A stretch of DNA of 64,000 nucleotides, taken from NCBI RefSeq assembly GCF_041913525.1, contig NZ_JAYSFD010000002.1, positions 5,186 to 69,185 of the forward strand, written 5' to 3'. Positions 20,280 through 55,804 of this stretch are shown here, in pieces. The number at the start of each line of letters is the position of its first letter. Position 1 is the stretch's first letter. Origin of the DNA: Hydrogenophaga sp. (lineage in GTDB: Bacteria; Pseudomonadota; Gammaproteobacteria; Burkholderiales; Burkholderiaceae_C). A program made the position numbers and the translations under genes. Below the pieces are notes generated by a model. The model made no database searches. It saw only the letters and a program-made list of their open reading frames with translations, and was not told where the DNA came from.

Positions 20280-20290
20280 TTGCCTAGCAA
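20280..20290. promoter_or_regulatory. TTGCCTAGCAA quasi-palindrome, site a
   Basis: Sits in an AT-rich patch 60 nt upstream of the cytochrome c start. TTGCCT could double as a -35 box, with AATCTT 16 nt downstream. Confidence 0.6.
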
Positions 20291-20304
20291 TTAAATATTT
20301 CAAT

Positions 20305-20325
20305 CTTGCATCTTTTTGATGCAAG
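20305..20325. promoter_or_regulatory. Perfect 8-bp inverted repeat CTTGCATC-TTTTT-GATGCAAG
   Basis: Lies between motif site a and the cytochrome c ATG. It could be an operator or a 5'-UTR hairpin. Confidence 0.5.
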
Positions 20326-20349
20326 TCCGGTCTCACCCATCGCGCCCCG

Positions 20350-21027
20350 ATGCCTCGCTTCATCGCCTCTTCTCTTGTCACCACGGCCCGCGCCCGCTGG
20401 CGGCACGGGTTCGTTCTCGTGCTGCTGGCCTGGCTGCCCGTGCTGGCCTCGGCCCAGGCCCGGGGCGAGGCACGCGCCGAGGCGCTGTACCGCCAGCATT
20501 GCGCCCAGTGCCACGGGGCCAACAAGCAGGGCGGGCCCGGTGTGCCCGACCTGTCGGGCGGTCTGGCGGCCTGGGGCCGCAGCGCCGAGTCCATCGCACA
20601 GACCATTCGCCACGGCATTCGCGTGCCCGGCCATGCGGCCACCCGGGGCGGCATCATGCCCGCCTTCAAGACCAATGCCGCCGAGTTCTCCGACGACGAG
20701 GTGCACGAACTGGTGGAATACCTCTTGCAACTGCGCCAGCAGCCGGCCGATGCCGCCGCCGCTTTGCGCGGCAAAGCCAACTTTGAATGGTGCGTGGCCT
20801 GCCACGGCCAGGACGCGCGCGGCAACACCAGCGTGGGCGGCCCCAACCTGCTGGCGCCGCGCCTGCAATACGGCGCCACGCGCCAGGCCCTGTTCGAGAG
20901 CATCGCCCAGGGCCGTGCCGGCACCTGCCCGCCCTGGGAAGGGCGCCTGGATGCCGCCGACATCGACACCCTGGCCCGTCACCTCGCTGGCGGCATGGCG
21001 AAGTCGCCCTCTCAATCCCAACCCTGA
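20350..21027 (+). CDS. Diheme c-type cytochrome (CcoP-like soluble domains)
   Basis: 225 aa with a signal/anchor (FVLVLLAWLPVLASAQA) and two CxxCH motifs (CAQCH, CVACH). No obvious SD, so the start is uncertain. Confidence 0.85.
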   Translation: MPRFIASSLVTTARARWRHGFVLVLLAWLPVLASAQARGEARAEALYRQHCAQCHGANKQGGPGVPDLSGGLAAWGRSAESIAQTIRHGIRVPGHAATRGGIMPAFKTNAAEFSDDEVHELVEYLLQLRQQPADAAAALRGKANFEWCVACHGQDARGNTSVGGPNLLAPRLQYGATRQALFESIAQGRAGTCPPWEGRLDAADIDTLARHLAGGMAKSPSQSQP

Positions 21028-21033
21028 AACACC

Positions 21034-21513
21034 ATGAGCCTGATCGAACGGGTAGACGCCAGCGCCTACGCGGAGTGGATTCGCAACTCCGACATCCTGT
21101 ACCCCCTGCTGCAGGTGGTGCACATCATCGGCATCTCCATCGTGGTGGGCTCGCTCATCGCGGGCAATGTGCGAGTGCTCGGCGCCGCCCGCGACCTGCC
21201 GCTGCGCGATTTTTCGCGCCACCTCTACCGCTGGGTGCTGGTGGGGCTGGTGCTGTTCCTGCTGACCGGCGTGCACATGGCGGTGGCCTTTCTGCACATC
21301 TTCGCCGTCAACCCGGTGATGGGCATCAAGCTGGTGCTGCTGGCACTGGCCGTGGCCGTCAACGTCTATCTGTACCGCTGGCAGTTCGCGGCAGCGGTGG
21401 CCCCGACCCAGGCCGGCGCACGCCAGAAGGCGTTGGCGGCGCTGTCGGTGCTCTTGCTGCTGACCATCATCGTGATGGGCAAGTTGCTGGCCTACATCGG
21501 CGGCAAAGACTGA
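21034..21513 (+). CDS. 4-TM membrane protein of unknown function (paralog 1)
   Basis: 159 aa. It aligns with the next gene (H-I/L-x-G...VG...LR-V/L-LG...LP...NP...KLVL). Confidence 0.75.
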   Translation: MSLIERVDASAYAEWIRNSDILYPLLQVVHIIGISIVVGSLIAGNVRVLGAARDLPLRDFSRHLYRWVLVGLVLFLLTGVHMAVAFLHIFAVNPVMGIKLVLLALAVAVNVYLYRWQFAAAVAPTQAGARQKALAALSVLLLLTIIVMGKLLAYIGGKD

Positions 21514-21547
21514 TCTCCTGGGCCCCGGCCGAACCGCGCACCACACC

Positions 21548-22039
21548 ATGACCGAATTCCTGCTTCAACTCAAATACTCCGCCTACGGCACCTGGGTCGG
21601 CACCTCGCTCTGGGGCTACGCCATCTTCGAGAGCCTGCACCTGATGGGCGTGGCCCTGCTGGTGGGCGCCATCACCCTCACCGACCTGCGCCTGCTGGGT
21701 TTCTCGCGCGTGCTGCCGGTGACGCTCACCGAGAAGTACTTGCTGCCCTGGGTGTGGTCGGGCTTCGCCATCGTGGTGTTCAGCGGCGTGAGCATGTTCA
21801 TCACCGACGGTTCTTACTTTCTGGAGAACCCCTTCCTGCTGTCCAAGCTGGTGCTCATCGTGCTGGCCGGGCTGAACGCGGGCTTCTTCCAGTTCCGTGT
21901 GCACCGCAGCGTGGCGGCCTGGGACGCCCAGCAGCCTTCGCCCGCGCTGGCCCGCCTGTGCGCGGCCCTGTCCATCGGCTTCTGGTTCCTGGCCGTGGCC
22001 TGCGGCCGCCTGATCGCCTACCCCGAACTCTGGTCCTGA
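21548..22039 (+). CDS. 4-TM membrane protein of unknown function (paralog 2)
   Basis: 163 aa, paralogous to 21034-21513. Confidence 0.75.
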   Translation: MTEFLLQLKYSAYGTWVGTSLWGYAIFESLHLMGVALLVGAITLTDLRLLGFSRVLPVTLTEKYLLPWVWSGFAIVVFSGVSMFITDGSYFLENPFLLSKLVLIVLAGLNAGFFQFRVHRSVAAWDAQQPSPALARLCAALSIGFWFLAVACGRLIAYPELWS

Positions 22040-22065
22040 GCGGCCGCCTCACCCCTCGCCAACCC

Positions 22066-23181
22066 ATGTCCCAAGCCACTGTTCGCGCGGCCGTCAAGAC
22101 CGCGCCCGAAGTCATCGAAATTCGCGAGTTTCCCCGCCCCGTGGTGGCGCCCGACGCCGGCCTGCTGCGCGTGGAGTGCGCCGGCGTGGGCGGCAGCGAC
22201 CCCGAGGTCTACCGCAAGCCCAACCACGCGCCCATCATCATGGGCCACGAAAACGTGGGCACCATCGACGAGGTGGGCGAGGTGGCCGCCCGGCGCTGGG
22301 GCGTGAAGGTGGGCGACCGCGTCGCCCTGCACGAGTACCTGCCCTGCTGGCACTGCGAGTGGTGCATGAAGGGCGACTTCCGCCTGTGCATGGAGGTGGA
22401 CTTCTTCAACGTGAAAGACCGCCTCAACACCCCGCGCTTCGGCATGAGCACCTGCGAGGCCGCGCCGCACCTGTGGGGCGGTTTCGCCGAGTACATGCAC
22501 CTGCCGGCCAACGCGGTGATGCACAAAATCCCGGCCCACCTTGACGCCCGTCTGGCCACGCTGGCCGTGCCTTTTGGCAACGGCGTGCAGTGGGCTTGTC
22601 TGGACGGTGGCGCCGGCCCGGGCAAGACGGTGCTGGTGTTCGGCCCCGGCCAGCAAGGCCTGGGCTGCGTGCTCGCGGCCAAGGCAGCGGGTGCCTACAA
22701 CGTGATCCTGGTCGGCCTCACGCGCGACCGTGACCGGCTGGACCTGAGCTTGCACCTGGGCGCGGACGTGGCCATCGACGCCGAGCAGGAAGACCTCAGC
22801 CGCCGCGTGATGGAGATCACCGGCGGGCGTGGCGTGGACGTGGTGGTGGACACCACCGGCGACCCCACCGGCAGCGTGGCCGCCACGGCCGTGGCGCTGG
22901 CCGCCAAGGGCGCCTACCTCAGCCTCAACGGCCTGGAGCAGTCGGTGCCCATCGGTGAGATCAAGAAGCGCTACCTCACGGTGCGTGCCCCGCGCGGGCG
23001 CAGCTACGCCGCCGTGGAGCTGGCCCTGCGCTACATCGCCAGCGGGCGCTGGCCGCTGGAGCGCGTGTGCTCGCACGACTACCCGCTGGAGCAGGTGGAC
23101 TTGGCCATCAAGGCCACCGCCGGCCGTGAGGTCAAGGGCGCCATTCACGTCACCGTCAGCCCCTGGCGGCGCGACGCCTGA
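22066..23181 (+). CDS. Zn-dependent alcohol dehydrogenase (MDR superfamily)
   Basis: Start at ATG 22066 (MSQATVRAAV). GHENVG catalytic Zn motif, CWHCEWCMKGDFRLC structural Zn site, and VFGPGQQGLG Rossmann. Confidence 0.92.
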   Translation: MSQATVRAAVKTAPEVIEIREFPRPVVAPDAGLLRVECAGVGGSDPEVYRKPNHAPIIMGHENVGTIDEVGEVAARRWGVKVGDRVALHEYLPCWHCEWCMKGDFRLCMEVDFFNVKDRLNTPRFGMSTCEAAPHLWGGFAEYMHLPANAVMHKIPAHLDARLATLAVPFGNGVQWACLDGGAGPGKTVLVFGPGQQGLGCVLAAKAAGAYNVILVGLTRDRDRLDLSLHLGADVAIDAEQEDLSRRVMEITGGRGVDVVVDTTGDPTGSVAATAVALAAKGAYLSLNGLEQSVPIGEIKKRYLTVRAPRGRSYAAVELALRYIASGRWPLERVCSHDYPLEQVDLAIKATAGREVKGAIHVTVSPWRRDA

Positions 23182-23290: not shown

Positions 23291-23998
23291 GTGGGCTATC
23301 TTTTTGAGCTAACAATCGTGGACTCTGCAAACAACACGCCAGTGGTTGACGTGCCAGCGCGAATTGCCAATGAGATTCAGGCGCTGATCAACCGGGGCAC
23401 GCTGTCGCCTGGTGTTCACCTGGGCCAGGCCGAACTGGCCGAGCGCTTCCAGACCAGCCGCGTGCCGGTGCGCGAAGCCCTCAAACTGCTCGCCGCACAA
23501 GGCAGCCTGCAACACGACCCCAACCGCGGTTTCTTCGTGGCCCCGCTCTCCAGCGATGAGGCCCGCCAGCTTTACCGCATGCGCCACCTGCTTGAGGTGG
23601 ACCTGCTCTCCACCGTGGAGTGGCCCGACAAGCCGCGCCTGGCCCAGCTCAAGGCCATGGTGGCCGAGCTGGAAAGCATCGTGGCCGCCGACGACCGCTC
23701 GCAGTGGGCGGTGAAGCACCGCGAGTTCCAGCTCGCCATCTTTGACCTGTCGCCGCAGAAGCTCATCCTGCGCGAGATCGTGCGCCTCTGGGCCCTGACC
23801 GACCGCTACCGCTCGCTGCTGCTGGCCACGGGCAGCCCCAAGGGCAACAAGAAGGTGGGGCGCGCCTGCGAGCAAGAGCACAAGCTCATTGCCGCGCTGG
23901 AGCAGAAAGACCTCAAGCGCCTGATGGCCGTGTACGACGAGGAGCGCACCTACGTGGAAGAGGTGCTGCTGGGTGTGCTGCGCGACCGCGGCCTCTGA
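23291..23998 (+). CDS. GntR-family (FCD) transcriptional regulator
   Basis: GTG start (an alternative GTG lies at 23318). HTH region LGQAELAERFQTSRVPVREALKLLAAQGSLQHDPNRGFFV. Confidence 0.88.
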   Translation: MGYLFELTIVDSANNTPVVDVPARIANEIQALINRGTLSPGVHLGQAELAERFQTSRVPVREALKLLAAQGSLQHDPNRGFFVAPLSSDEARQLYRMRHLLEVDLLSTVEWPDKPRLAQLKAMVAELESIVAADDRSQWAVKHREFQLAIFDLSPQKLILREIVRLWALTDRYRSLLLATGSPKGNKKVGRACEQEHKLIAALEQKDLKRLMAVYDEERTYVEEVLLGVLRDRGL

Positions 23999-33915: not shown

Positions 33916-33926
33916 TTGAATAGCAA
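33916..33926. promoter_or_regulatory. Weak TTGCCTAGCAA-like site (TTGAATAGCAA)
   Basis: Two mismatches. Located in the AT-rich divergent region between the PDR reductase and the porin. Confidence 0.3.
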
Positions 33927-35306: not shown

Positions 35307-35372
35307 TGCGGGCCTGACCGGCCCTGTCGCGACACAAGGCACCACCCCAGCCGGGTGGTGCGCTTGAGCTAT

Positions 35373-40646: not shown

Positions 40647-40671
40647 TCGCCATCGTCCGCCCTTGCTGACC

Positions 40672-40699: not shown

Positions 40700-40712
40700 G
40701 CCCCCAAAGCCC

Positions 40713-41513: not shown

Positions 41514-41560
41514 GCCAGGGCGCTATTCTTTCGATAACAAATTCCAACGGAGACACGTCA

Positions 41561-42898: not shown

Positions 42899-42937
42899 TG
42901 CCCCCGCCGTTTTCTCACGATTCGATCGCACCCTCGC

Positions 42938-43792
42938 ATGAAACTCTTTGACTCGCACGCCCACCTCGTTTCGGCCGACTTCGACCGCTACCCCGTCTCG
43001 CCCCTGTCGGGCGAACTTGACCGCAAGCTCGACAACCCCGTCACCGCCGAGGTGCTGCTGGGCCTGATGGACGAGCAGGGCGTCGAGCGCGCCTGCGCCG
43101 TGCAGCGCGCCCACGTCTATGGCTACAACAACGCCTACGTGATCGACTCGGCCAAGCGCCACGCCGACCGCCTGGTGGCCGTGTGCGTGATCGACGCCGC
43201 CGCCGCCGACTCTGCCGCCACCGTGGCCCGCTGGGCCGACGAAGGCGCCGTGGGCATGCGCCTGTCGGAGAAGACCAAAGGGCAGGGCACCGGCTGGCTC
43301 GATTCCGACAACGCCCAGCGCGCCTGGGAAGCCGTGGAGCGCCTGGGCCTGTCGATGTGCGTGCACATGTACCGCTGGAACCGCCAGGAAGTGCTGCGCA
43401 GCCTGCTGGTGCTGGCCCAGCGCTTCCCCAAGGTGCCCCTGGTGCTGGACCACCTGTCCAACCCCATCGAGGAAAGCGGTGCGCCCGACTACGGCGTGGA
43501 CGCCGACCTGCTGGCGCTCAAGCCGCTGGCCAACGTCTACCTGAAGTACTCGCACATCAACCTGGCGCGCATGGCCAAGAACGGTGTGAACAGCGCCGAC
43601 GTGCTGCACCGCGTGCTGCAAGACTTCCCGGCCGAGCGCGTGATGTGGGGCTCTGACGTGGCCCAGTCCGCCGGCACCTACGACGAAATGGTGGGCGCCG
43701 CCCGGGCCGCCACCGCCAAGCTCTCGCCCGAGCAGGTGCAGGCCGTGCTGCGTGGCACCGCCGAGGCGGTGTACGGCGCGCGCTGGCGCTGA
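42938..43792 (+). CDS. Amidohydrolase-2 family hydrolase (LigI-type lactonase-like)
   Basis: 284 aa. MKLFDSHAHL at the N-terminus, LVLDHL and VMWGSD motifs. Confidence 0.82.
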   Translation: MKLFDSHAHLVSADFDRYPVSPLSGELDRKLDNPVTAEVLLGLMDEQGVERACAVQRAHVYGYNNAYVIDSAKRHADRLVAVCVIDAAAADSAATVARWADEGAVGMRLSEKTKGQGTGWLDSDNAQRAWEAVERLGLSMCVHMYRWNRQEVLRSLLVLAQRFPKVPLVLDHLSNPIEESGAPDYGVDADLLALKPLANVYLKYSHINLARMAKNGVNSADVLHRVLQDFPAERVMWGSDVAQSAGTYDEMVGAARAATAKLSPEQVQAVLRGTAEAVYGARWR

Positions 43793-43808
43793 TCGGGGCC
43801 CGGGCGCC

Positions 43809-45222: not shown

Positions 45223-45233
45223 TTGCCTAGCAA
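45223..45233. promoter_or_regulatory. TTGCCTAGCAA quasi-palindrome, site b
   Basis: 129 nt upstream of small-protein copy 1, in an AT-rich patch. Confidence 0.6.
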
Positions 45234-45350: not shown

Positions 45351-45766
45351 GGAGACCTGCCATGTTTTCGATTCGCCAACTGGTGCAAGCCGCTGCGGTG
45401 GCCGCGCTGACCCTGGGCACGGTGGCCGTGCACGCCCACCACTCGCCCGCCGCGTGGGAGATCACCAAGCGCAACAGCGTCACGGGCGTGGTGAAGGACG
45501 CGTCGTTCCGCAACCCGCACGGGCAGATCACGCTGGCGGTGACCAACGAGCAAGGGCAGACGGAAGAGTGGCGCGTGGAGACCAGCGCGGCCAACCTGCT
45601 GCGCCGCCGTGGCTGGGACTTCTCCAAGGTCACGCCGGGTTTGAAGATCCGCGTGGTGGGGCACCTGAACAAGGAGCAGCCGCGCGAGATTTACATCCGC
45701 GAGATCCACTTTGAAGACGGCACGGTCTTTGGCGACAAGGGCGGCAATGACGCCGCGCTCGACTGA
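45351..45766 (+). repeat. Dispersed duplicate, copy 1 (RBS + whole small-protein gene)
   Basis: Five mismatches over 416 bp versus 50483-50898, including a 378-bp perfectly identical run (45370-45747). Confidence 0.95.
45362..45766 (+). CDS. Small secreted protein, predicted mature N-terminus HHS... (I recall this as DUF6152-like), copy 1
   Basis: 134 aa. Signal MFSIRQLVQAAAVAALTLGTVAVHA|HHSPAAWE. RBS GGAGA. Confidence 0.8.
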   Translation: MFSIRQLVQAAAVAALTLGTVAVHAHHSPAAWEITKRNSVTGVVKDASFRNPHGQITLAVTNEQGQTEEWRVETSAANLLRRRGWDFSKVTPGLKIRVVGHLNKEQPREIYIREIHFEDGTVFGDKGGNDAALD

Positions 45767-45818
45767 TCCGCTCTGCTTCGACGCTTTCTTTTTCGATTCA
45801 CAACAGGAGACACCCCCC

Positions 45819-46583
45819 ATGATTTCTCGCCTGCCTTTCAAGCGCGCCCTGGCCGTGCTGGCCTCCACCGTGGTCCTGGCGGCCTGCAGCTCGGTGCCGC
45901 AGTCGCCCTCGTCGTCTGAAGCCCTGGGTGGCAAGCCCAACTTCAACGGTGTGTGGGAAATGCTCGACATGGCCAAGGTGGTTCGCCCCGAGCAAGGCAC
46001 GCCGCCGTACACGCCCGAGGCCGCCAAGGTGGCCGCCGAGTTCAAGTCGTGGGACCCCAAGAAAGACGATCCCTCGCTGTACTGCGACCTCAAGGGCATG
46101 CCCTGGATGATGCTGTCGCGCGCCCGCACCTACCCGGCCGAGATCTACCAGACCGCCGAGCGCGTTGACGTGTTCTTCGAGCTGTTCGACACCTCGCGCA
46201 GCATCCGCGTGAACGGCAAGCCCGCGCCCAAGAACATCTCGCCCAGCATCAACGGCTACTCCACCGCCACCTGGGACAACGACACCCTGGTCATCAAGAC
46301 CACCGCCCTGGCCGAGCGCCTGTACCCGAGCCCGCAACTGCGCTCGGAAAAGGCCGAACTCACCGAGCGCTGGAAGATGGTGAAAGACCCGAAAGAGGGT
46401 GACCTGATCGAGATCGACTTCGAGATCGTGGACCCGGTGGTCTACACCCGCCCGGTCAAGGGCAAGCAGGTGTTCAAGCGCGCCGCACCCGACGTGGTGG
46501 TGGCCAGCTACAACTGCCCCGAGAAGCTGTGGCTCAAGCACGTGGACGACCGCCGCGCCCAGGGCAAAGCCGCCGCCAAGTAA
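45819..46583 (+). CDS. Lipoprotein of unknown function (paralog of 35435-36214)
   Basis: Start at ATG 45819 after AGGAGA. Lipobox VVLAAC. Shares motifs with the paralog. Confidence 0.8.
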   Translation: MISRLPFKRALAVLASTVVLAACSSVPQSPSSSEALGGKPNFNGVWEMLDMAKVVRPEQGTPPYTPEAAKVAAEFKSWDPKKDDPSLYCDLKGMPWMMLSRARTYPAEIYQTAERVDVFFELFDTSRSIRVNGKPAPKNISPSINGYSTATWDNDTLVIKTTALAERLYPSPQLRSEKAELTERWKMVKDPKEGDLIEIDFEIVDPVVYTRPVKGKQVFKRAAPDVVVASYNCPEKLWLKHVDDRRAQGKAAAK

Positions 46584-46600
46584 ACCCGCCTGTGTTGACC

Positions 46601-46634
46601 AGCCGCGCCTCACCCGGGGCGTGGCTTTCTGTTT
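46601..46634 (+). terminator. Hairpin + T-rich tail
   Basis: agccgcgcc-tcacccgg-ggcgtggct then ttctgttt. Confidence 0.55.
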
Positions 46635-46646
46635 GAGAGCATCCCC

Positions 46647-47480
46647 ATGAGCCAAGCCCCTGTTTCCCCCGTCAACGTGTCCCGCCGCCGTGGCCTGGTG
46701 GGTGCCGCCCTGGCCGCCGTGGCCGCCCCGCTGGTGAGCACGCCGGCCCAGGCCCAGCCCGCCGCTGGCGCCAAAAAAACCTTTGTGCTGCTGCCCCCCG
46801 CCTGGGCCGGCAGCTGGATCTACACCAAGACCGCCGACTGGCTGCGCGCGCAAGGCCATGTGGTCTACACCCCCACGCTCACCGGCCTGGCCGAGCGCGC
46901 CCACCTGCTGCGCCCCGACGTGAACATGGACACCCACGTGCAAGACGTGGTGAACCTCATCAAGTGGGAAGAGCTGAGCAACGTGGTGCTGGTGGGTCAC
47001 TCCTTCACCGGTGGCGTGGTCAGCGGCGTGGCCGAGAAGGTGCTGGACAAGCTGGCCTCGGTGATCTTCGTGAACGCCTACGTGCACGAAAACGGCGCCT
47101 CCATCCAGGACTACCTGAGCCAGCGCTCGCACGCCGACATCGACGCCCGCCTGGCCAAGGGCGAGCTGGGCCTGCCCAACCCGCCAGCGGCTTTCTATGC
47201 CCTGCCGCAGAAAGAGTGGGCGCGCATCGACGAGCTGCACACCCCGCACCCGCTGGGCGCCATCGTGCAGAAGCTCAAGCTCACCGGCGCGGTGGAGCGC
47301 GTGCCCAAGAAGACCTACATCATGCTGGCGCAGTTCGCGCGTGGCCGCGACTACGAGCTCAAGCACTTCAACCGCGTCAAGGGCCAGCCGGGCTGGAACA
47401 CCGTCTCGGTGGAGAAGGGGCACCTGCCCATGGTGGACGACCCGGTGGGCTTCGCCCAGTTGCTGCTGCAAGCCGCCTGA
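46647..47480 (+). CDS. Tat-exported alpha/beta-hydrolase (esterase, SABP2/methylesterase-like)
   Basis: Twin-arginine signal SRRRGLVGAALAAV...AQA. Nucleophile elbow GHSFTG. C-terminal His region GHLPMVD. Confidence 0.82.
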   Translation: MSQAPVSPVNVSRRRGLVGAALAAVAAPLVSTPAQAQPAAGAKKTFVLLPPAWAGSWIYTKTADWLRAQGHVVYTPTLTGLAERAHLLRPDVNMDTHVQDVVNLIKWEELSNVVLVGHSFTGGVVSGVAEKVLDKLASVIFVNAYVHENGASIQDYLSQRSHADIDARLAKGELGLPNPPAAFYALPQKEWARIDELHTPHPLGAIVQKLKLTGAVERVPKKTYIMLAQFARGRDYELKHFNRVKGQPGWNTVSVEKGHLPMVDDPVGFAQLLLQAA

Positions 47481-47494
47481 CCGGGAGCGACGCG

Positions 47495-47824
47495 ATGAAC
47501 CTCTTCCGACTCGCCACCTTCGCTGCCCTCTTCGGCGCCGCCGCGGCCGCCCAGGCCCAGACCGAGGCCGACGCCCTGTTCGCCAACAAGATCTGCTTCG
47601 CCTGCCACAGCGTCACCAAGGCCGACTTCAAGCGCATCGGCCCCTACGTGGTGGACATCAAGGCCAAGTACCAGGGCCAGGCCGACGCCCGCGCTTACCT
47701 CAAGGACAAGATCCTGCGCGGCAGCGCCGGGGTGTGGGGCCCGGCCGAGAGCTCGGTGATGCCCGCCAACAAAGTGACCGACGCCGAGGCCGACCTGCTG
47801 GCCGGCTGGATCCTCACCCAATAA
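47495..47824 (+). CDS. Class I monoheme cytochrome c (c551/c552-like)
   Basis: Start at ATG 47495. Signal peptide, CFACH heme motif, and a distal Met in SVMPAN. Confidence 0.88.
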   Translation: MNLFRLATFAALFGAAAAAQAQTEADALFANKICFACHSVTKADFKRIGPYVVDIKAKYQGQADARAYLKDKILRGSAGVWGPAESSVMPANKVTDAEADLLAGWILTQ

Positions 47825-47833
47825 GCCCAGGCC

Positions 47834-49399
47834 ATGACACTCCCCCCAAAGCTCAGTGCGCGCGATTTCACGCGTGCGGTGGCCGAGTTGCGCTCCATCG
47901 TGGGCGCCGACTGGGTGTTCACCGAAGAAGACGACCGCCAGGCCTGGCGCGACCCCATGTTCCCGGGCGACGCGCGCCGCGTGGACCTGTCGGCCGCGGT
48001 GGCCCCCGCCACCGTGCAAGAGGTGCAGGCCGTGGTGAAGGTGGCCAACCGCTACCGCCTGCCGCTGTGGCCGGTGTCCACGGGCAAGAACTACGCCTAC
48101 GGCGGCGCCTCGCCCGCGCTGAAGGGCACCATCGTGCTCGACCTCAAGCGCATGAACCGCATTCTTGAGGTCAATGAGCAATACGGCTACGCCATCGTCG
48201 AGCCCGGCGTCACCTACTTTGACCTGTACCGCCACATCAAGGCCAAGGGCCTGAAGCTGTGGATCGACTGCCCCTCGCCAGGCTGGGCCAGCGTGCTGGG
48301 CAACGCCATGGAGCGCGGCCTGGGCAACACGCCCTACAGCGACCACGCCGCGCAACAGTGCGGCATGGAAGTGGTGCTGCCCACCGGCGACCTGGTGCGC
48401 ACCGGCATGGGCGCCATCGAGAACAGCCCGCTGTGGGGCCTGCAGAAAAACCCCTTCGGCCCCACCTTCGACGGCATGTTCATGCAGTCCAACCTGGGCA
48501 TCGTCACCAAGATGGGCATCTGGCTCATGCCCGAGCCCGAGGTGTTCGCGCAGTGCAACATCCGCCTGCAGCGCGAAGACGCCCTGGGCCCCATGATCGA
48601 CGCCCTGCGCCCGCTGCGCCTGAACGGCACCATCCAGAACCCGGCCAGCGTGCGAAGCTGGATCGGCATGCTGCTGGGCCAGGCCGCCAAGAAAGAGGTG
48701 CACGACGGCCCCGGCGCCATTCCGCGCGAACTGGTGCCGCAGATCCTGCAGCAGCGCAACCTGTCGTGGTGGAGCACTGGCTTCTCGCTCTACGGTTACG
48801 AAGAGGTGGTGGAGGCCAACCTCAAGGTGGTGCGCAAGGCCCTGGGCAGCGTGCCCGGCGCCGAGGCGCTATCGGTGCGCAAGTCGGCCGGCGACAAAGT
48901 GCCCGACAGCGCCGGCACGCAGGCCGGCGTGCCCAGCCTGGGCGCGTTCTCCACGCTCAACTGGCCAGGCGGGCGCGGCTCGCACCTCGATTTCTCGCCG
49001 GTGTACGAGCCCAGCGGGGCCGTGGCCATGGCCGAGTACCAGTTCATGCGCGAGCTGTTCGAGCGCCACGGCTTTGACTTCCCCGCCACCTACTCGATTA
49101 CCTCGCCGCGCTACATGGCCTGCGTCACGCCCATCATGTTCGACGCCGACAACCGCCAGCAGGCCGAGGCCGCCGGGCGCCTGTTCCTGGAGGCCCACCA
49201 GCACCTGGGCACCAAGGGCTATGGCCTGTACCGCGCCCACGTGGCCTTCATGGACCAGGTGCAGCAGGCGCAAGGCTTCAACCAGCACGCGCTGCGCCGC
49301 CTGAGCGAGCGCATCAAGGATGCGCTGGACCCGCAAGGCATCCTGGCACCCGGCAAACAAGGCATCTGGCCCAAGGCCATGAAAGGGGGCCGTGCATGA
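47834..49399 (+). CDS. PCMH/VAO-family FAD flavoprotein subunit (p-cresol methylhydroxylase PchF / 4-alkylphenol hydroxylase-like)
   Basis: 521 aa with an FAD_binding_4 N-terminal domain (LWPVSTGKNYAYGG) and a VAO-type cap and C-terminus. Confidence 0.88.
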   Translation: MTLPPKLSARDFTRAVAELRSIVGADWVFTEEDDRQAWRDPMFPGDARRVDLSAAVAPATVQEVQAVVKVANRYRLPLWPVSTGKNYAYGGASPALKGTIVLDLKRMNRILEVNEQYGYAIVEPGVTYFDLYRHIKAKGLKLWIDCPSPGWASVLGNAMERGLGNTPYSDHAAQQCGMEVVLPTGDLVRTGMGAIENSPLWGLQKNPFGPTFDGMFMQSNLGIVTKMGIWLMPEPEVFAQCNIRLQREDALGPMIDALRPLRLNGTIQNPASVRSWIGMLLGQAAKKEVHDGPGAIPRELVPQILQQRNLSWWSTGFSLYGYEEVVEANLKVVRKALGSVPGAEALSVRKSAGDKVPDSAGTQAGVPSLGAFSTLNWPGGRGSHLDFSPVYEPSGAVAMAEYQFMRELFERHGFDFPATYSITSPRYMACVTPIMFDADNRQQAEAAGRLFLEAHQHLGTKGYGLYRAHVAFMDQVQQAQGFNQHALRRLSERIKDALDPQGILAPGKQGIWPKAMKGGRA

Positions 49400-49839
49400 A
49401 CGCCCGCTTGCTGAACCGCGCGGCCACCCTGGTCGTCCTTTCGCTGGGCCTGCTCGCCACCAGCGCCCAGGCCGATGGCCCGGCCCCGGCGGCAGCCGCC
49501 GCCCCGGCCGCGCCAGTGGCCGCCCCGGTGCCTGAGAACCTCACGCCCGCCCAGGCCGAAGGCCGCCAGTTGTATGGCGTGCACTGCATCTACTGCCACG
49601 GCGCCGGCCCCGGCCGTGCCGGCACCACCGCGCTGGCCCGCCGCGTGGGCAAAGACCGCGCCGTGCTGGAAGCGCGCGACGACCTGGACCGCGCCTACGT
49701 GCAGTACGTGGTGCGCCATGGCCTGAACGCCATGCTGCCGCTGCGCCGCACCGAACTCACCGACGCCGAACTGGGCCGCATCGTTGACTGGCTGCAGCGC
49801 CCTCGCGCGGCGCAGACGGCCTCGGGGGCCAAACCATGA
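49396..49839 (+). CDS. Cytochrome c subunit (PchC-like) of the flavocytochrome
   Basis: ATGA overlap with the flavoprotein gene. Signal peptide, Ala/Pro linker, and CIYCH heme motif. Confidence 0.85.
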   Translation: MNARLLNRAATLVVLSLGLLATSAQADGPAPAAAAAPAAPVAAPVPENLTPAQAEGRQLYGVHCIYCHGAGPGRAGTTALARRVGKDRAVLEARDDLDRAYVQYVVRHGLNAMLPLRRTELTDAELGRIVDWLQRPRAAQTASGAKP

Positions 49840-50264
49840 GCGACCGCCGCCAGTTCCTCGGCCTGGCCGCCGCCAGCGCCGCCACCGGCGGCTGGCTGGC
49901 CGGCCCGGCGCACGCCAGCGCCTCGGCCTTGCCCCAAACCCCGGCCTCGCCTGAGCCCGTGCACTGGTGGGTGGACGCCCGGCGCCCGGTGGCGCTTCAG
50001 GCGGTGCAGCGTCTGGCCCGCTTGGGCGAGCCGGTGCACGCCTTGCCCGCCCGCCTGGCGCCCGATTGGGCCGCCGCACGGCTGGCCCAGGCGCAGGCCG
50101 AGGGCGCGGCGGTGGCCGGCGTGGCTTCCATGGCCGACGCCTTTGTGCTGCGCCAGCTCGCCCTGGACGCCGGCTGGCGCATCGCCGCCTTGCAGGTGGC
50201 GCCCGCCAGTGCGAACAGCCCGGCCCTGGTGTCGTGGCGCTTTCAGTCGCCGCCCCAGGCATGA
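49836..50264 (+). CDS. Tat-signal protein of unknown function
   Basis: ATGA overlap. MSDRRQFLGLAAASAATGGWLAGPAHA twin-arginine signal. 142 aa. Confidence 0.65.
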   Translation: MSDRRQFLGLAAASAATGGWLAGPAHASASALPQTPASPEPVHWWVDARRPVALQAVQRLARLGEPVHALPARLAPDWAAARLAQAQAEGAAVAGVASMADAFVLRQLALDAGWRIAALQVAPASANSPALVSWRFQSPPQA

Positions 50265-50346: not shown

Positions 50347-50357
50347 TTGCCTAGCAA
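50347..50357. promoter_or_regulatory. TTGCCTAGCAA quasi-palindrome, site c
   Basis: 137 nt upstream of small-protein copy 2. TATCTT lies 16 nt after TTGCCT. Confidence 0.6.
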
Positions 50358-50482: not shown

Positions 50483-50898
50483 GGAGACCTGTCATGTTTT
50501 TGATTCGCCAACTGGTGCAAGCCGCTGCGGTGGCCGCGCTGACCCTGGGCACGGTGGCCGTGCACGCCCACCACTCGCCCGCCGCGTGGGAGATCACCAA
50601 GCGCAACAGCGTCACGGGCGTGGTGAAGGACGCGTCGTTCCGCAACCCGCACGGGCAGATCACGCTGGCGGTGACCAACGAGCAAGGGCAGACGGAAGAG
50701 TGGCGCGTGGAGACCAGCGCGGCCAACCTGCTGCGCCGCCGTGGCTGGGACTTCTCCAAGGTCACGCCGGGTTTGAAGATCCGCGTGGTGGGGCACCTGA
50801 ACAAGGAGCAGCCGCGCGAGATTTACATCCGCGAGATCCACTTTGAAGACGGCACGGTCTTTGGCGACAAGGGCGGCAACGACGCCGCGCTGGATTGA
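50483..50898 (+). repeat. Dispersed duplicate, copy 2
   Basis: See 45351-45766. Confidence 0.95.
50494..50898 (+). CDS. Small secreted HHS-N-terminus protein, copy 2
   Basis: Start at ATG 50494 (MFLIRQLV). 134 aa, differing from copy 1 only at residue 3 (S/L). Confidence 0.8.
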   Translation: MFLIRQLVQAAAVAALTLGTVAVHAHHSPAAWEITKRNSVTGVVKDASFRNPHGQITLAVTNEQGQTEEWRVETSAANLLRRRGWDFSKVTPGLKIRVVGHLNKEQPREIYIREIHFEDGTVFGDKGGNDAALD

Positions 50899-51395
50899 TG
50901 GGCGAACGGCACTTTTTCCTGGCGCCGCTGCTGGGCGCCCTGGCGCTGTCGGGCACCGCGTCGATGGCGGCCGAAGACCTGGACAAGGGCGTGGAACCCG
51001 TGGGCCCGGCCAACTACCGCCCCGCTGAAACCCGCCTGCGCAGCGACACCGTGAAGCTGGTGCTCAAGCCCGAGGAACAGGTGGAGGTGAAGACCCTGCT
51101 GGCCGAAGGCCAGGTCATCACCTACCAGTGGACCAGCAAGGGCGCCAAAGAGGGCGAGCTGTACGTGGACTTCCACGGCCACACCCTGCCGCCGCCGGGC
51201 CAGAAAGAGCGCGTGGTGCGCTACGCCGAAGGCGAGCACACCGCCGGGCGCGGCGCCATCGTGGCGCCCCTCACGGGTGAGCACGGCTGGTTCTGGCTGA
51301 ACATGGGCACCAAGCCCGTGACGATCGAGTTGCGCGTCAGCGGCTTCCACACCAAGGTCGAACAACACCGCATCCAGACGCCAGGCAAGTCCTGA
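50898..51395 (+). CDS. Secreted beta-rich protein of unknown function
   Basis: The ATG overlaps the upstream stop (TGATG). Signal LAPLLGALALSGTASMA. 165 aa. Contains DFHGH and GEHGWFWLN motifs. Confidence 0.7.
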   Translation: MGERHFFLAPLLGALALSGTASMAAEDLDKGVEPVGPANYRPAETRLRSDTVKLVLKPEEQVEVKTLLAEGQVITYQWTSKGAKEGELYVDFHGHTLPPPGQKERVVRYAEGEHTAGRGAIVAPLTGEHGWFWLNMGTKPVTIELRVSGFHTKVEQHRIQTPGKS

Positions 51396-51558
51396 CCGCG
51401 CCCTTTCGATTCGATTGCTCCAAGGTGGCTCGCCGGTTGCCCTGCGCAACCGGGCATTGCTGCTCACCCGGGTGGCCCAGACCGGGTGTTCGTTTCGCCA
51501 CATGGGCCCATCGGCCCGTGTGGCGTCTTTTTTGTCACAACCCACAAGAGGTGAGACC

Positions 51559-53001
51559 GTGTTTCTCCCAAGCATTCCCACGCCCTTGCTGAGCGCCATT
51601 CGCCGCTCGCTGGGTGCGCTGGCCGTGGCCAGCCTGTCGGCCACCGCCTTCGCCCAGGGCGCCGCCGTGCCCGCCGCCCCGGCCAAGGCCCAGTTGTGCG
51701 CCAGTTGCCACGACGGTGGCGTGAAGATGGGCACGCCGCCCGTGAACGTGCCCAAGCTGGTGCGCCAGCAGTCCGACTACATCCACACCGCGCTGCACCA
51801 GTTCCGCAGCGGCCAGCGCAAGAACGAGACCATGCAGGCCATCGCGGCCGGCCTGAGCGACCAGGACATCCGCGAACTGGCCGACCACTTCGGCGGCGTG
51901 CGCCCCCTGCCGGTGCGCATGCCCGAGGGCATGGTGATGCCCAAGGTGGTCAAGCAGGTGTGCGAGAACTGCCACGGCATGACCGGCGTGGCCTCGCTGC
52001 CCGAGACGCCCATCATCGGTGGCCAGCACCGCGACTTCCTGCGCGTCACGCTGGAGAACTTCCGCAATGGCCAGCGCCACAGCACGGTGATGAGCCCCAT
52101 CGCCCAGATGCTGAGCGACGAAGACATCCGCGTGGTGGCCGAGTACTACGAGACGGTGCACAACTACTTCGTGCCGCCCACGGCCAAGGAAATCGAGCAG
52201 GCCGCCCAGTCGAACCTGGCCGTCTCGGGCCCGGTGACGCTGGTGAAGCACCAGCCGACCAAGCCCCAGAGCGCGGCCGAGCAGAAGAAGGCCGCCCTGG
52301 CCATTGCCGCCTCGCTGGAGATGGTGACCCTGCCGGCCGGCAACTTCCTGATGGGCAGCCCCGCCGACGAGGGCGACGCCCCCGGCCTGCCGCGCCATAC
52401 GGTGACGCTCAAGTCCTTCAAGATGGCCAAGAACATGGTCACCTTTGACCAGTTCGACGCCTACTCTAAGGCCACCGGCCGGGCCCTGGTGAACGACGGC
52501 GGCATGAAGCGCGGCAACTACCCGGTGATCAACATCACCATGGGCGAGTCGCAGGCCTTCATCGACTGGCTCAACCGCCACACCGGCCGCCGCTTCAAGG
52601 TGCCCAGCGAGTCCGAGTGGGAATACGCCGCCCGCGCCGGCACCACCACGCACTACTGGTGGGGCGACAAGGTGGACTTCGGCAAGTACAACTCCTTCCG
52701 CAACGAAGGCGCCGACATCTGGCCCACCACCTCGCCCGTGGGCGCCTTCCCGCCCAACCCCTGGGGCCTGCACGACATGACCGGCAATGTGTTCCAGCGC
52801 GTCTCCGATTGCCGCCGCCCCACCTACGACGGCAAGCCCACCGATGGCAGCCCGGTGGTGGGCGAGCCCTGCCTGCTCAAGACCATGCGCGGTGGCTCGT
52901 GGCGCAACCTCAGCGGTGCCGCCCGCCACGCCACCCGCAGCGGCGTGACCGACGAGCTGATCAGCACCTCCATCGGCCTGCGCGTGGCCGAAGACCTCTG
53001 A
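51559..53001 (+). CDS. Fusion protein: diheme cytochrome c4-like N-terminus + FGE-sulfatase (SUMF1/EgtB/PvdO) domain
   Basis: Probable GTG start at 51559 after AAGAGG (ATG 51502 is an alternative). Signal peptide. CASCH and CENCH heme motifs with c4-type spacing. FGE motifs SESEWEYAARAG, NPWGLHDMTGNVFQ and MRGGSW. Confidence 0.85.
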   Translation: MFLPSIPTPLLSAIRRSLGALAVASLSATAFAQGAAVPAAPAKAQLCASCHDGGVKMGTPPVNVPKLVRQQSDYIHTALHQFRSGQRKNETMQAIAAGLSDQDIRELADHFGGVRPLPVRMPEGMVMPKVVKQVCENCHGMTGVASLPETPIIGGQHRDFLRVTLENFRNGQRHSTVMSPIAQMLSDEDIRVVAEYYETVHNYFVPPTAKEIEQAAQSNLAVSGPVTLVKHQPTKPQSAAEQKKAALAIAASLEMVTLPAGNFLMGSPADEGDAPGLPRHTVTLKSFKMAKNMVTFDQFDAYSKATGRALVNDGGMKRGNYPVINITMGESQAFIDWLNRHTGRRFKVPSESEWEYAARAGTTTHYWWGDKVDFGKYNSFRNEGADIWPTTSPVGAFPPNPWGLHDMTGNVFQRVSDCRRPTYDGKPTDGSPVVGEPCLLKTMRGGSWRNLSGAARHATRSGVTDELISTSIGLRVAEDL

Positions 53002-53046: not shown

Positions 53047-53907
53047 TCAGGCGCCGTAGTACCCCACGGCCAGCACGAGCTGGCCCACCCGCTGCACGAA
53101 GGTGGTCTTGGGCTCCTTGTGCCGGGTGACCGGGTTGAGCCACACGTAGCGCGTCTCCACCACCTCACCCACCTTCGCGCGGCGCACCATTTCGCGGCCG
53201 ATGAAGTGGCGGTTGGCGTCTTTCAAGTACGTCACGTTGCGGCCCACCAGGCGCGGCTGCGTGCCGTGGGCGTGCATCACCATGTCGTTGGCGCCGATGG
53301 CGAACACGTACAGGTCGTCTTGCACGAAAGCGCCGTTCACGTCGTTGAACTCGGCCAGCACCGCCGGCCCGCGCTGCTCCAGTGCCTTCACCGCGCGCGC
53401 TAGCCAGGCCCGCGCCTCGGTGGCGGTGGCCCGATCGATCATCTGGCTCACCACGATCACCGCCTCGCCCACGCGGCGGAAGTGCACCGTCTTGGTCTCG
53501 TCCTGGCCGGTGCGGCGGTTGGTCCAGCGGTAGTTCAGGCTGGTGGGGGCATCGGCCCGCGCCCGCTCCAGAACGGTGGCGATGTAGGCGCCGCCCTCGC
53601 GGTCGCGGTGCCCGCGCACGTCTTGCCCGATGAACACCTCGGACGGCCCGCCACTGGCCTTGAGCACCCCATCGGCGCCCAGCACATAGACGTACAGCCC
53701 GGCCTCGTCAAAGGCCCCGCCGCGCTGGAAGGCGGGCAAGGCGGCGTCGCCCCGGCGCTGGTAGAGCGCGGCGGCCCGCGCCAGCAGATCCAGTGCGCGG
53801 GCGTTGTCACTGGCCGCAAAGGCTGGGCCGGCAGCGAGCGCTGGCATGGCCAGCAGCGAACAAGACAAAAAACGGCGACGATCGGCAGAAAAGGGGGTAG
53901 GCATCAC
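53047..53907 (-). CDS. Tat-exported protein made of two single-Cache (sCache_2-like) domains, no output domain
   Basis: 286 aa. Signal SADRRRFLSCSLLAMPALAAGPAFA. Two repeats follow the pattern LYVxxxGADG...H...G... and end in ...V(V/A)VG(S/Y). Confidence 0.75.
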   Translation of the reverse strand: MMPTPFSADRRRFLSCSLLAMPALAAGPAFAASDNARALDLLARAAALYQRRGDAALPAFQRGGAFDEAGLYVYVLGADGVLKASGGPSEVFIGQDVRGHRDREGGAYIATVLERARADAPTSLNYRWTNRRTGQDETKTVHFRRVGEAVIVVSQMIDRATATEARAWLARAVKALEQRGPAVLAEFNDVNGAFVQDDLYVFAIGANDMVMHAHGTQPRLVGRNVTYLKDANRHFIGREMVRRAKVGEVVETRYVWLNPVTRHKEPKTTFVQRVGQLVLAVGYYGA

Positions 53908-53942
53908 ACGGCTCCAAGGCGATTGCGGTCGTAGAATGCTAC

Positions 53943-53959
53943 AACATTGCTAGGCAATG
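53943..53959. promoter_or_regulatory. TTGCCTAGCAA family, site d: perfect 17-bp palindrome ACATTGC-TAG-GCAATGT
   Basis: Located in the 132-bp divergent region, 40 nt from the Cache gene start and 83 nt from the DUF1993 start. Confidence 0.65.
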
Positions 53960-54039
53960 TATAAGGCTTAACCAACCCGACCCTGACGGTGGCGCTGGCA
54001 AAGGCGCGCCCACGGGCCGTTTTTTGATGGAGACAAACC

Positions 54040-54561
54040 ATGTCCTTTTCCTTGTATGACGCCACCGTACCCGCCTGGCGCCAGACCCTGCGCGCGGTGA
54101 TGGGCTACCTCGACAAGGCCCAGGCCCATTGCGACGCGCAAGGCGTGGCGCCGGCCACGCTGATCGAGGCGCGCCTGATCGACGACATGTTCCCGCTGGG
54201 CTTCCAGATCAACTCGGTGTGCGTGCACTCGCTGGGCGCCATCGAGGGCGTGCGCCGTGGCACCTTCTCGCCCGATCGCTCGCCCTGGCCGGCCGACTTT
54301 GCCGGCCTGCGCGCCAAGGTGCAGGCCACGCTGGAGGCGATCGAGCGCCTGCAGCCCGACGACGTGAACGGCCTCATGGGCCGCGACGTCACCTTCCAGC
54401 GCGGCGAGGTGGCCGTGCCCTTCGTGGCCGAGAACTTCCTGCTGTCGTTCTCGCTGCCCAACTTCTATTTCCACGCCGCCACGGGCTACGACATCCTGCG
54501 CTCGCGCGGCGTGCCGCTGGGCAAGGTGGACTACCTAGGCGCCGTGCGCAAAAAGGCCTGA
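54040..54561 (+). CDS. DUF1993-family protein
   Basis: 173 aa. MSFSLYDATVPAWRQTLRAVMGYLDKA and FYFHAATGYDILR are typical of DUF1993. Confidence 0.85.
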   Translation: MSFSLYDATVPAWRQTLRAVMGYLDKAQAHCDAQGVAPATLIEARLIDDMFPLGFQINSVCVHSLGAIEGVRRGTFSPDRSPWPADFAGLRAKVQATLEAIERLQPDDVNGLMGRDVTFQRGEVAVPFVAENFLLSFSLPNFYFHAATGYDILRSRGVPLGKVDYLGAVRKKA

Positions 54562-54580
54562 AGCCGGTGCGCCCCGGGCC

Positions 54581-54928
54581 TCACTGGCCCGAGTGGTTGG
54601 CCGCCACGAAGTTGCCCTGCGGCGTGAAGAACAGGAACAGGCGCCGCTTGGCCGGGTCGCTGGCCTTGGGGTTGTCGTAAACCACGCGCCACTCCTCGCC
54701 CTTGGGCCCCGCGCCCAGCGTCACGCTGGGCGGCGCCACCGCCTGCCAGGACGCCTCCAGCTTGCCCGCCTGCAGCAGCGAGGCCTTGCGCTCATCGGCG
54801 CAAGCGGTCACGGTGGTGGCGCTGGCCACAGTCTTGCCGTGGAAATGGCAATTGCCGGTGTGCGCCAGGGCGGCCTGGCCACCCAGGGCCAGGGCGAGAG
54901 ACAGCAGAAGACGGGGCAGGGCGGTCAT
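54581..54928 (-). CDS. Small secreted protein, predicted mature N-terminus HTGNCHFHGK
   Basis: Start at ATG 54928 (MTALPRLLLSLALALGGQAALA|HTGN). 115 aa, 20 nt downstream of hupE-like. Confidence 0.7.
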   Translation of the reverse strand: MTALPRLLLSLALALGGQAALAHTGNCHFHGKTVASATTVTACADERKASLLQAGKLEASWQAVAPPSVTLGAGPKGEEWRVVYDNPKASDPAKRRLFLFFTPQGNFVAANHSGQ

Positions 54929-54948
54929 GGGCGTGCTTCCAGATGGCA

Positions 54949-55731
54949 TCAGAGGCTGTTGCGCGAGGCGTCGGTGGTGTTCTCGATTTCCATGTCTTCG
55001 TGCACGTGCCGGTGCTCGGCCTCGGGGAAGCGGAAATCGTCGGCGTAAAGATCGTGCTGCAGGCCGTGCAGTTGCACGAACAGCAGGTAGACACCGGCCA
55101 GCACCAGGCCCATGTTGGCCAGGCGGCTGAAGCGCGCGAATGAGGGGCGGTGGCGCCACAAGGCCAGGCCCGCCACCATGGCCGCCAGGGCCACGATCTG
55201 CCCCAGCTCCACGCCCAGGTTGAAGCTCAGGATGCGGCCCACGATGCCGGCGGTGTCGTCGCCCAGCGGCAATTGCTGCAGCCGCGTGGACAGGCCAAAG
55301 CCATGCAGCAGGCCAAAGCCGAACACCGCCCACAGAATGGGCGGCGGCGTCAGGTCCAGGTGTTTCTGGAAGCCGCCGTTGTTGTCAAAACCCTTGTAGA
55401 TCACGCTGATGGCGATCAGCGCGTCCACCAGGTAGTAGTTCCAGGTGATCTGCAACAGCGTGGCGCCCACCAGGGTGATGCAGTGGCCCAGGGTGAACAC
55501 GGTGACCAGGCGCACCACGTCCATGAAGCGGTGCAGCAGAAACACCACGCCCAGCAGGAACAGCAGGTGGTCGTACCCGGTGAGCATGTGGCGCGCGCCC
55601 AGTTCCACGTACTGCAGGTAGCCGCCGTCGAGCATGCGCTGCTTGTCGGCCTGGGAAATGCCATGGGCCCAGGCCAGGGCGGGGCAGAGCAGGGCGGCCA
55701 GCGTGGCCGAGAACGATCGCCATCGGGTCAT
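54949..55731 (-). CDS. HupE/UreJ-family metal (Ni/Co-type) permease
   Basis: Start at ATG 55731 (MTRWRSFSATLAALLCPALAWA|HGIS). GYDHLLFLLG motif. About 6 TM. Confidence 0.85.
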   Translation of the reverse strand: MTRWRSFSATLAALLCPALAWAHGISQADKQRMLDGGYLQYVELGARHMLTGYDHLLFLLGVVFLLHRFMDVVRLVTVFTLGHCITLVGATLLQITWNYYLVDALIAISVIYKGFDNNGGFQKHLDLTPPPILWAVFGFGLLHGFGLSTRLQQLPLGDDTAGIVGRILSFNLGVELGQIVALAAMVAGLALWRHRPSFARFSRLANMGLVLAGVYLLFVQLHGLQHDLYADDFRFPEAEHRHVHEDMEIENTTDASRNSL

Positions 55732-55793
55732 CGGGTTTGTCTCCTGTGCGCTTGGCTGGCGTGGCGTTGTGTAGCCATGCATGCCAATCTATT

Positions 55794-55804
55794 TTGACTA
55801 GCAA
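55794..55804. promoter_or_regulatory. TTGCCTAGCAA-like site f (TTGACTAGCAA)
   Basis: One mismatch, 63 nt upstream of the hupE-like start. Confidence 0.5.

Follow-up and report, generated by a model that had tools for sequence, protein, structure and literature searches.

Regulators of the FadR subfamily recognize A/T-rich palindromes in which TKGT and ACMA boxes typically lie 3 nt apart (Suvorova et al. 2015, PMC4494728), and in Sphingobium sp. SYK-6 the MarR-type regulator DdvR represses ligXa and ddvT (PMC6874591). Here, we analyze a 64-kb stretch of Hydrogenophaga sp. contig NZ_JAYSFD010000002.1 (the window), in which an 11-bp quasi-palindrome, TTGCCTAGCAA (the 11-mer), recurs upstream of the units of an aromatic-catabolism island that also encodes GntR1, a protein with GntR and FCD domains. 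The operator core of E. coli MarR is TTGCC(T/A)GGGCAA. With that operator the 11-mer shares the TTGCC...GCAA half-sites and an overlap with the -35/-10 region, whereas the arms lie 4 nt apart there and 3 nt apart in the 11-mer, and no conserved MarR orthologue travels with the 11-mer. The resemblance to the operators of FadR-subfamily repressors such as DgoR, PdhR, LldR, and FadR covers several features: an 11-bp inverted repeat of 4-3-4 geometry (TTGC-CTA-GCAA) with a conserved center and A/T-rich flanks, several sites per regulon lying over predicted core promoters and divergent regions, and a regulator gene beside a catabolic operon whose product combines a GntR winged helix-turn-helix with an FCD domain. 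For a local FadR-type regulator, the putative regulon is unusually wide; it comprises seven units over ~36 kb and takes in many periplasmic proteins of unassigned function. As in the DdvR system, a substrate-released repressor is predicted to govern a LigXa-type Rieske O-demethylase together with the uptake of a lignin-derived aromatic compound. However, control would be non-orthologous (GntR/FCD here, MarR there), and a porin takes the place of the TonB-dependent receptor in outer-membrane uptake.

The initial annotation of this DNA had reported exact or one-mismatch copies of the element at six promoters, and our count agrees: the window contains five exact copies (sites a to e) and one copy with a single mismatch (site f). 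Six copies with at most one mismatch compare with 0.58 expected, and 0/100 dinucleotide-preserving shuffles got to six. All six are intergenic on a gene map drawn from GC content at third codon positions (GC3) and Pfam, in which the intergenic share is ~8.5% (P ~4e-7). They also lie upstream of genes as claimed, although the distance to the start codon, first given as 40-190 nt, becomes 42-168 nt after correction of the start codons. The AT-rich patches described around the copies are evident from a local GC content (±25 nt) of 0.36-0.46, against 68% for the window. CTAG is avoided, as had been assumed, with 18 occurrences against 62 expected, and a third of these (6/18) fall in the 11-mer. 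Relaxed TTGC-N3-GCAA with any center is not enriched in the window, indicating that the signal and its specificity reside in the full 11-mer, center included, and a two-mismatch search of the window added only noise. A literature search returned matches to the 11-mer in eukaryotic and viral primers only and no description of the motif or of a regulon, in line with the earlier failure to assign it to a described site. The repeated 11-mer is a genuine feature of this DNA, and its presence at several promoters supports the proposal of a shared cis-regulatory operator that defines a regulon; it is very probably the operator of a local transcription factor.

Aligned in a matrix, 21 sites yield A-TTGCCTAGCAA-T as the extended consensus, and each position of the core is kept in at least 16 of them. 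Position -1 is A in 17 of the 21 sites and position +1 is T in 13, while the inner bases of the arms are C at position 4 (18/21) and G at position 8 (16/21), i.e., GC/GC. The quasi-palindromic form makes binding by a dimer probable, as originally suggested. The description of the element at 53943-53959 as a perfect 17-bp palindrome does not hold; it is a 7+3+7 inverted repeat with perfect 7-bp arms and an asymmetric, non-palindromic TAG/CTA center.

We evaluated the placement of the copies relative to promoters predicted by consensus scans, the -10 elements at sites e and f being read from the sequence. At site a, the promoter TTGACG-17-AATGAT (20243-20271) ends 8 nt before the 11-mer, and at site b, TGGACG-16-TAGAAT (36328-36355) ends 11 nt before it, so that the 11-mer occupies about +2 to +15 of the best predicted promoter at both. 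At sites e and f, -10-like hexamers (TAGAAT and TATAAA, respectively) lie 9-10 nt upstream on the gene strand. Site e is 42 nt from the Cache gene on the minus strand and 82 nt from the DUF1993 gene on the plus strand. Site f does lie upstream of hupE, as reported; the gene is on the minus strand, however, and its start is corrected to ~55731 (MTRWRS...AWA|HGIS), 62 nt away. Among related loci (designated by L numbers), the 11-mer lies within the spacer and -10 of the predicted porin promoter in L162, provides the -35 hexamer of both predicted DUF6152 promoters in L067, and covers both divergent predicted promoters in L163. The notion that TTGCCT serves as a -35 box thus survives at DUF6152 promoters only and fails at sites a and b, where the best promoter lies upstream. 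Across promoters, the position of the 11-mer ranges from -35 to about +15 in either orientation, and this variable placement within the core promoter fits steric repression rather than a sigma element or a fixed-position activator.

The 11-mer is kept upstream of orthologous genes in related genomes, a comparison that had been proposed as a check. In L067 (57.7% GC; DUF6152 81% identical), an exact copy precedes both DUF6152 genes, one of them flipped, and in L071, the one-mismatch GTGCCTAGCAA lies upstream of DUF6152. In L162 (GntR1 80% identical), one exact copy precedes the cytochrome c operon and another the orthologous porin (67% identical), the latter 137 nt upstream against 129 nt in the window. 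This porin copy validates window site g, which lies between a Fer2 reductase gene (minus strand, start ~33848) and the porin gene (plus strand, start 34056, 129 nt away); site g had been listed as a weak copy and is probably real as well, although it retains two mismatches. In L161 (GntR1 80%), the cytochrome c gene is preceded by two degenerate copies that share CCTAGCAATA and are inverted relative to each other at a distance of 39 bp. In L163 (GntR1 65%; 57% GC), the GntR1 orthologue is divergent from a BNR-ACAD-LigXa operon, and the shared intergenic region contains TTGCCTTACAA and TTGCCTATCAA, with the two copies 120 and 159 nt before the BNR gene. An exact copy lies 0.8 kb from the regulator gene in L164/165 (GntR1 70%; ~50% GC), where ~0.002 are expected per 5 kb, and L088 (GntR1 49%) carries TTGCCTAACAA and TTGACTAACAA directly after -10-like hexamers. 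Together, L067, L162, and L164 hold five exact copies against ~0.013 expected, whereas ~1.6 Mb of unrelated control loci contain none. The orthologous operons that keep the exact motif in spite of diverged flanks belong to other species of 57-65% GC. Copies are paired at 39 bp, start to start, in both L161 (295-344) and L163 (4644-4693), a spacing that hints at cooperative binding of two dimers.

The two DUF6152 genes of the window have coding DNA ~99% identical, and their upstream regions are nearly unalignable except for the exact 11-mer. The ~99% identity of 45362-45766 and 50494-50898 runs from the ribosome-binding site to the stop codon, a pattern indicative of gene conversion or of a recently duplicated coding region. 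In the near-identical relative FWPV01000597.1, the 5.1-kb stretch that separates the two copies is absent, as expected of recombination between them.

The distribution of the 11-mer is restricted. The eight Hydrogenophaga hupE loci (L073-L080), 62 kb from three of which entered the control count, lack it, and hupE orthologues (71-75% identical) from three other Hydrogenophaga species show no copy within ±10 kb (~150 kb of flanks). The 11-mer is thus neither a genus-wide promoter feature nor a hupE metal box but goes with the island. DUF6152 loci taken from reference genomes of Novosphingobium, Acidobacteriota, and Gammaproteobacteria also lack it and are too distant to inform. A scan of metagenomes for LigXa recovered relatives mostly 40-69% identical, with L088 as the sole informative locus. 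TTGC-N2-5-GCAA variants in the promoter regions of L083, L166, and L068 occur at background frequency (~1 per 56 kb) and were not counted.

The initial annotation held that the regulator is not encoded next to any site, which is contradicted by GntR1: its gene lies directly 3' of the site-a operon, and orthologues are linked to the 11-mer in five other contexts (L088, L161, L162, L163, and L164/165). These orthologues were found through loci fetched with LigXa and by a homologue search with contig look-ups. No regulator other than GntR1 recurs at all of the motif-bearing loci whose length allows a judgment. Considering the motif, its conservation, its linkage to this gene, and its overlap with predicted promoters, we infer that GntR1 is the reasonably likely binder of the 11-mer, that it acts by repression, and that an effector relieves it; the 11-mer would then be the operator of an effector-released repressor of the aromatic island, the reading that we consider probable. 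Each half-site, TTGC or GCAA, would be contacted by one winged helix-turn-helix of a GntR1 dimer, and the sites cover the predicted core promoters of no fewer than seven transcription units across the 36-kb island. When no inducer is present, bound GntR1 would block RNA polymerase. The ligand of the FCD domain would be a substrate or intermediate of the pathway and is probably a lignin-derived-type aromatic carboxylate; once it is bound, the repressor would leave and all units would be induced together.

Several observations weigh against the assignment to GntR1. The inner bases GC/GC depart from the GT/AC that defines the FadR-subfamily operator, and the center, a fixed CTA/TAG in the 11-mer, is conserved as strongly as the arms yet asymmetric, for which a simple symmetric dimer gives no account. 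The conserved linkage is partly by construction, since most of the GntR1-linked loci were fetched through GntR1, and only the window and L088 are independent. L071 was fetched via DUF6152 and comes from the same sample as L162 with a similar GC content, making it a candidate for the same genome only, and the comparison with intermediate relatives covers the sites other than e and f. The immediate upstream region of GntR1 in the window contains no 11-mer, so autoregulation would need read-through from site a. The window also encodes two more GntR/FCD proteins and one MarR, in addition to HipB. Finally, the orthologues in L093 and L166 (50-59% identical) have nearly the same recognition helix and no 11-mer nearby, implying either that operators drift fast or that another protein binds; a comparison of recognition helices did not separate orthologues with the 11-mer from those without it. 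GntR1 has no orthologue of >40% identity in the plasmid collection and passes no NCBIfam equivalog cut-off, and its nearest solved structures are 3c7j (uncharacterized) or McbR.

One alternative is that a different co-occurring factor, whether another GntR/FCD protein, a MarR-type protein, or an unlinked one, binds the 11-mer, while GntR1 binds the second palindromes that adjoin several sites (CTTGCATC-N5-GATGCAAG at site a and GGTRTAAAYACC at DUF6152 promoters). The existence of these second palindromes, the recognition helix shared by the L093 and L166 orthologues that lack the 11-mer, the similarity of the 11-mer to the MarR operator core, and a MarR gene near the exact copy in L164/165 all favor it. 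However, the MarR proteins of L164 and the window are only 25% identical, and none is seen in L067, L071, L088, or L161-L163; MarR genes near the 11-mer are not orthologous, and we rejected MarR as the binder. Similarly, the divergent region of GntR2, the second GntR/FCD gene of the window, has conserved repeats of its own (GAACCAAT and GGTTCT), here as well as in L162, and the second palindrome of site a is not kept in the orthologous promoters of L161 and L162, where the 11-mer is. With GntR1 also the one regulator common to the motif-bearing loci long enough for a judgment, we hold this alternative to be rather unlikely. A further candidate proved not to be a regulator: the small gene that L088 and L083 carry divergently from LigXa is the conserved 116-aa accessory open reading frame (ORF). 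That RNA polymerase itself reads the 11-mer as a promoter element, such as an extended -35 for sigma-70 or an alternative sigma factor, agrees with the calling of TTGCCT or TTGCTA as -35 hexamer at the two DUF6152 promoters of L067 and with the -10-like hexamer that follows 16-17 nt later at sites a, c, and d. It is nevertheless very improbable: the element faces the downstream gene in both orientations (sites b and f and the first L067 copy versus sites a, c, and d), lies downstream of the best promoters at sites a and b and within the spacer at the L162 porin, is conserved at all 11 positions, far beyond a hexamer, and is missing from other Hydrogenophaga promoters (hupE loci). The GG-N10-GC spacing of a sigma-54 promoter is not found. 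Nor is there a match to ATGCA-N6-TGCAT, the site of the AccR/BphQ catabolite-control response regulators, the paper giving no site for BphQ.

The initial annotation had interpreted the element as the target of an unlinked global metal (Ni/Co/Cu) or redox regulator that coordinates periplasmic metalloproteins. The histidines that it noted at predicted mature N-termini are indeed encoded in DUF6152 (HHSPAA, invariant in 21 homologues), DUF6488 (HTGNCHFH), and HupE (HGISQ), and a HupE/UreJ-type transporter, cytochromes c, hemerythrin, and a ferric-reductase-like protein lie in or near the set. In contrast, the largest target operons encode cytoplasmic aromatic-catabolic enzymes and major facilitator superfamily (MFS) transporters, with a porin also among the targets; Pfam annotation of the main ORFs of the window found no metal-sensor family gene; hupE orthologues elsewhere in Hydrogenophaga lack the 11-mer; and the 11-mer co-travels with a local GntR/FCD gene. 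The AlphaFold model of DUF6152 (pLDDT 80.6) is a generic OB-fold whose fold search matched only SSB and LysRS anticodon-domain folds (TM ~0.45) and no specific metalloprotein, and it speaks neither for nor against metal binding. We know of no metal-sensor operator that matches the 11-mer. A metal or redox program is therefore improbable as the basis of the motif, and a metal-dependent periplasmic submodule within an aromatic regulon is possible. The remaining explanation, chance or a selfish dispersed repeat (a REP/MITE-like remnant) with no regulatory role, draws on the shortness of the element and its AT-rich intergenic setting and is already largely refuted; the flanks are unrelated between copies, the copies are all intergenic and upstream of genes, the shuffles never reach the observed count, and exact copies are conserved before orthologues in species of 50-65% GC. 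Likewise, no Rfam family, whether cis-regulatory RNA or riboswitch, reaches its gathering score anywhere in the window, and we consider such a repeat barely credible.

The motif-marked units delineate an aromatic-catabolism island at 20-56 kb of the window, as annotated with Pfam and NCBIfam (Table 1). Enzyme names are borrowed from the literature on other organisms and are analogies, none of the proteins passing an NCBIfam equivalog cut-off. The island encodes a LigXa-like Rieske oxygenase (Rieske and LigXa_C domains), an HsaA/HpaB-C2-type flavin monooxygenase with a separate flavin reductase, a LigB-type extradiol dioxygenase, three RraA/LigK-like aldolases, four Amidohydro_2 enzymes (LigW/LigY/LigI superfamily), two MFS transporters, a porin, and a flavocytochrome-like FAD oxidase with cytochrome c. 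Its periplasmic or membrane modules comprise a diheme cytochrome c with two DUF6644 proteins and a zinc alcohol dehydrogenase (Zn-ADH), two DUF6152 proteins, a cytochrome c-FGE fusion, a Cache-only protein, a DUF1993 protein, and HupE_UreJ_2 with DUF6488. The gene order cytochrome c, DUF6644, ADH, and then GntR1 recurs in L161, L162, and L165. Two distant relatives unite the modules in single clusters: L068 has DUF6152-DUF6644-DUF6644-cytochrome c beside BNR-ACAD-LigXa, and L166 has LigB, two RraA, flavin reductase, ADH, Amidohydro_2, LigXa, and DUF6152 around a single GntR gene. Such fusion indicates that the motif-marked units belong together functionally. More tentatively, an FCD-GntR repressor might tie a cytoplasmic LigXa/LigB-type pathway to the secreted and membrane proteins DUF6152, DUF6644, several cytochromes c, cytochrome c-FGE, HupE_UreJ_2, DUF6488, DUF1993, and Cache, which would make up a previously undescribed periplasmic oxidative front end, possibly metal-dependent, for aromatics derived from lignin, an extension that we regard as conceivable but doubtful.

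If the GntR1 reading is correct, it provides a predicted operator, regulator, and regulon for an uncharacterized FadR/FCD branch, with a GC half-site in place of the canonical GT, and an inducible promoter/repressor pair usable in lignin-valorization hosts. It would also link DUF6152, DUF6644, DUF6488, DUF1993, and HupE_UreJ_2 to a LigXa-type aromatic pathway by guilt by association, and the front-end extension, if true, would make the regulon the first functional handle on these DUF families. The same type of pathway would then be under non-orthologous repressors according to lineage, MarR-type DdvR in Sphingobium and a GntR/FCD protein here. No new regulatory principle is revealed; the novelty lies in the non-canonical half-site and the functional link for the DUF families.

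Table 1. Copies of the 11-mer, the proposed regulator, putative target units, and neighboring repeats (window coordinates unless a locus is named)
Feature	Position	Strand	Sequence or gene content	Location or annotation
Site a	20280..20290	+	TTGCCTAGCAA	59 nt 5' of diheme cytochrome c operon
Site b	36367..36377	-	TTGCTAGGCAA on + strand	168 nt 5' of BNR/flavin monooxygenase/LigXa-like operon
Site c	45223..45233	+		128 nt 5' of DUF6152 copy 1
Site d	50347..50357	+		136 nt 5' of DUF6152 copy 2 (real start 50494)
Site e	53947..53957	-	core of ACATTGC-TAG-GCAATGT	between Cache gene and DUF1993
Site f	55794..55804	+	TTGACTAGCAA	62 nt 5' of hupE-like/DUF6488 (minus strand)
Site g	33916..33926	+	TTGAATAGCAA, 2 mismatches	between Fer2 reductase and porin
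GntR1, proposed cognate repressor	23318..23998	+		Pfam GntR + FCD (FadR-subfamily)
Putative target operon	20350..23181	+	diheme cytochrome c, DUF6644 x2, Zn-ADH	Pfam
Putative target operon	34056..36214	+	porin, secreted 264-aa protein	
Putative target operon	36546..45203	+	BNR propeller, HsaA-type flavin monooxygenase, 116-aa ORF, LigXa-like Rieske oxygenase; also Amidohydro_2 x2, MFS x2	
Putative target cluster	45362..50264	+	DUF6152-1, secreted 254-aa protein, alpha/beta hydrolase, small cytochrome c; also FAD-linked oxidase + cytochrome c (flavocytochrome-like), 142-aa ORF	
Putative target cluster	50494..53001	+	DUF6152-2, 165-aa ORF, cytochrome c-FGE-sulfatase fusion	
Putative target	53047..53904	-	periplasmic Cache-domain protein	Pfam
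Putative target	54040..54561	+	DUF1993 protein	Pfam
Putative target operon	54581..55731	-	HupE_UreJ_2, DUF6488	
GGTRTAAAYACC-like boxes	45252-45266, 50373-50388; L067 10236; L071 ~2090			
CAATCTTGCA	20300-20309, 33924-33933; L163 4691-4700			
GCGCACCGGCA	11766, 12693, 23463, 30759, 31378, 31572, 38476, 41991, 48397, 51908			

Other repeats accompany the sites. The second palindrome of site a, CTTGCATC-TTTTT-GATGCAAG, spans 20306-20326 just 3' of the 11-mer, and GGTRTAAAYACC-like boxes lie just 3' of the 11-mer at 5/5 DUF6152 promoters examined. These second palindromes probably serve another GntR-type regulator as operators, so that control would be dual. Three sites, spread over two genomes, have the 10-mer CAATCTTGCA either directly after the 11-mer or 11 nt after it. 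In the divergent region of the GntR2 gene (26450-27229), GAACCAAT and GGTTCT each occur twice, both in the window (27230-27319) and in L162 (6056-6146); these repeats are probably the operator of GntR2 itself, distinct from the 11-mer. Another repeat, GCGCACCGGCA, has 10 copies in the window against 0.44 expected, 10/10 within genes and on both strands, and does not occur in 62 kb of other Hydrogenophaga loci. Of these copies, two code for PVRE, a motif of GntR proteins, and three fall within RraA-like paralogues.

Further features of the island and its flank concern individual genes. The cytochrome c-FGE-sulfatase-domain fusion (51559-53001), 3' of DUF6152-2, has an unusual architecture, and a PchF/PchC-like FAD oxidase with two small cytochromes c is encoded at 47495-49839, 3' of DUF6152-1. 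The secreted paralogues at 35420-36214 (after the porin) and 45819-46583 (after DUF6152-1) have no Pfam match and share the motif NFNGVWEMLD; the L162 orthologue, also 3' of the porin, is 71% identical. A HipA/HipB toxin-antitoxin pair (24131-25826, minus strand) lies inside the island between GntR1 and the hemerythrin/GntR2 genes. The island flank at 57883-64000 encodes two signaling proteins, one a stand-alone receiver-domain protein and the other a hybrid histidine kinase (CHASE-PAS) of >2000 aa; neither has a DNA-binding output or a copy of the 11-mer. In other Hydrogenophaga, a His-rich ORF of 127-131 aa (HAIDHGHHQHE...HHSHA) precedes hupE/DUF6488 (L074 9509-9892; L077 and L079), whereas the window has an 11-mer promoter in its place.

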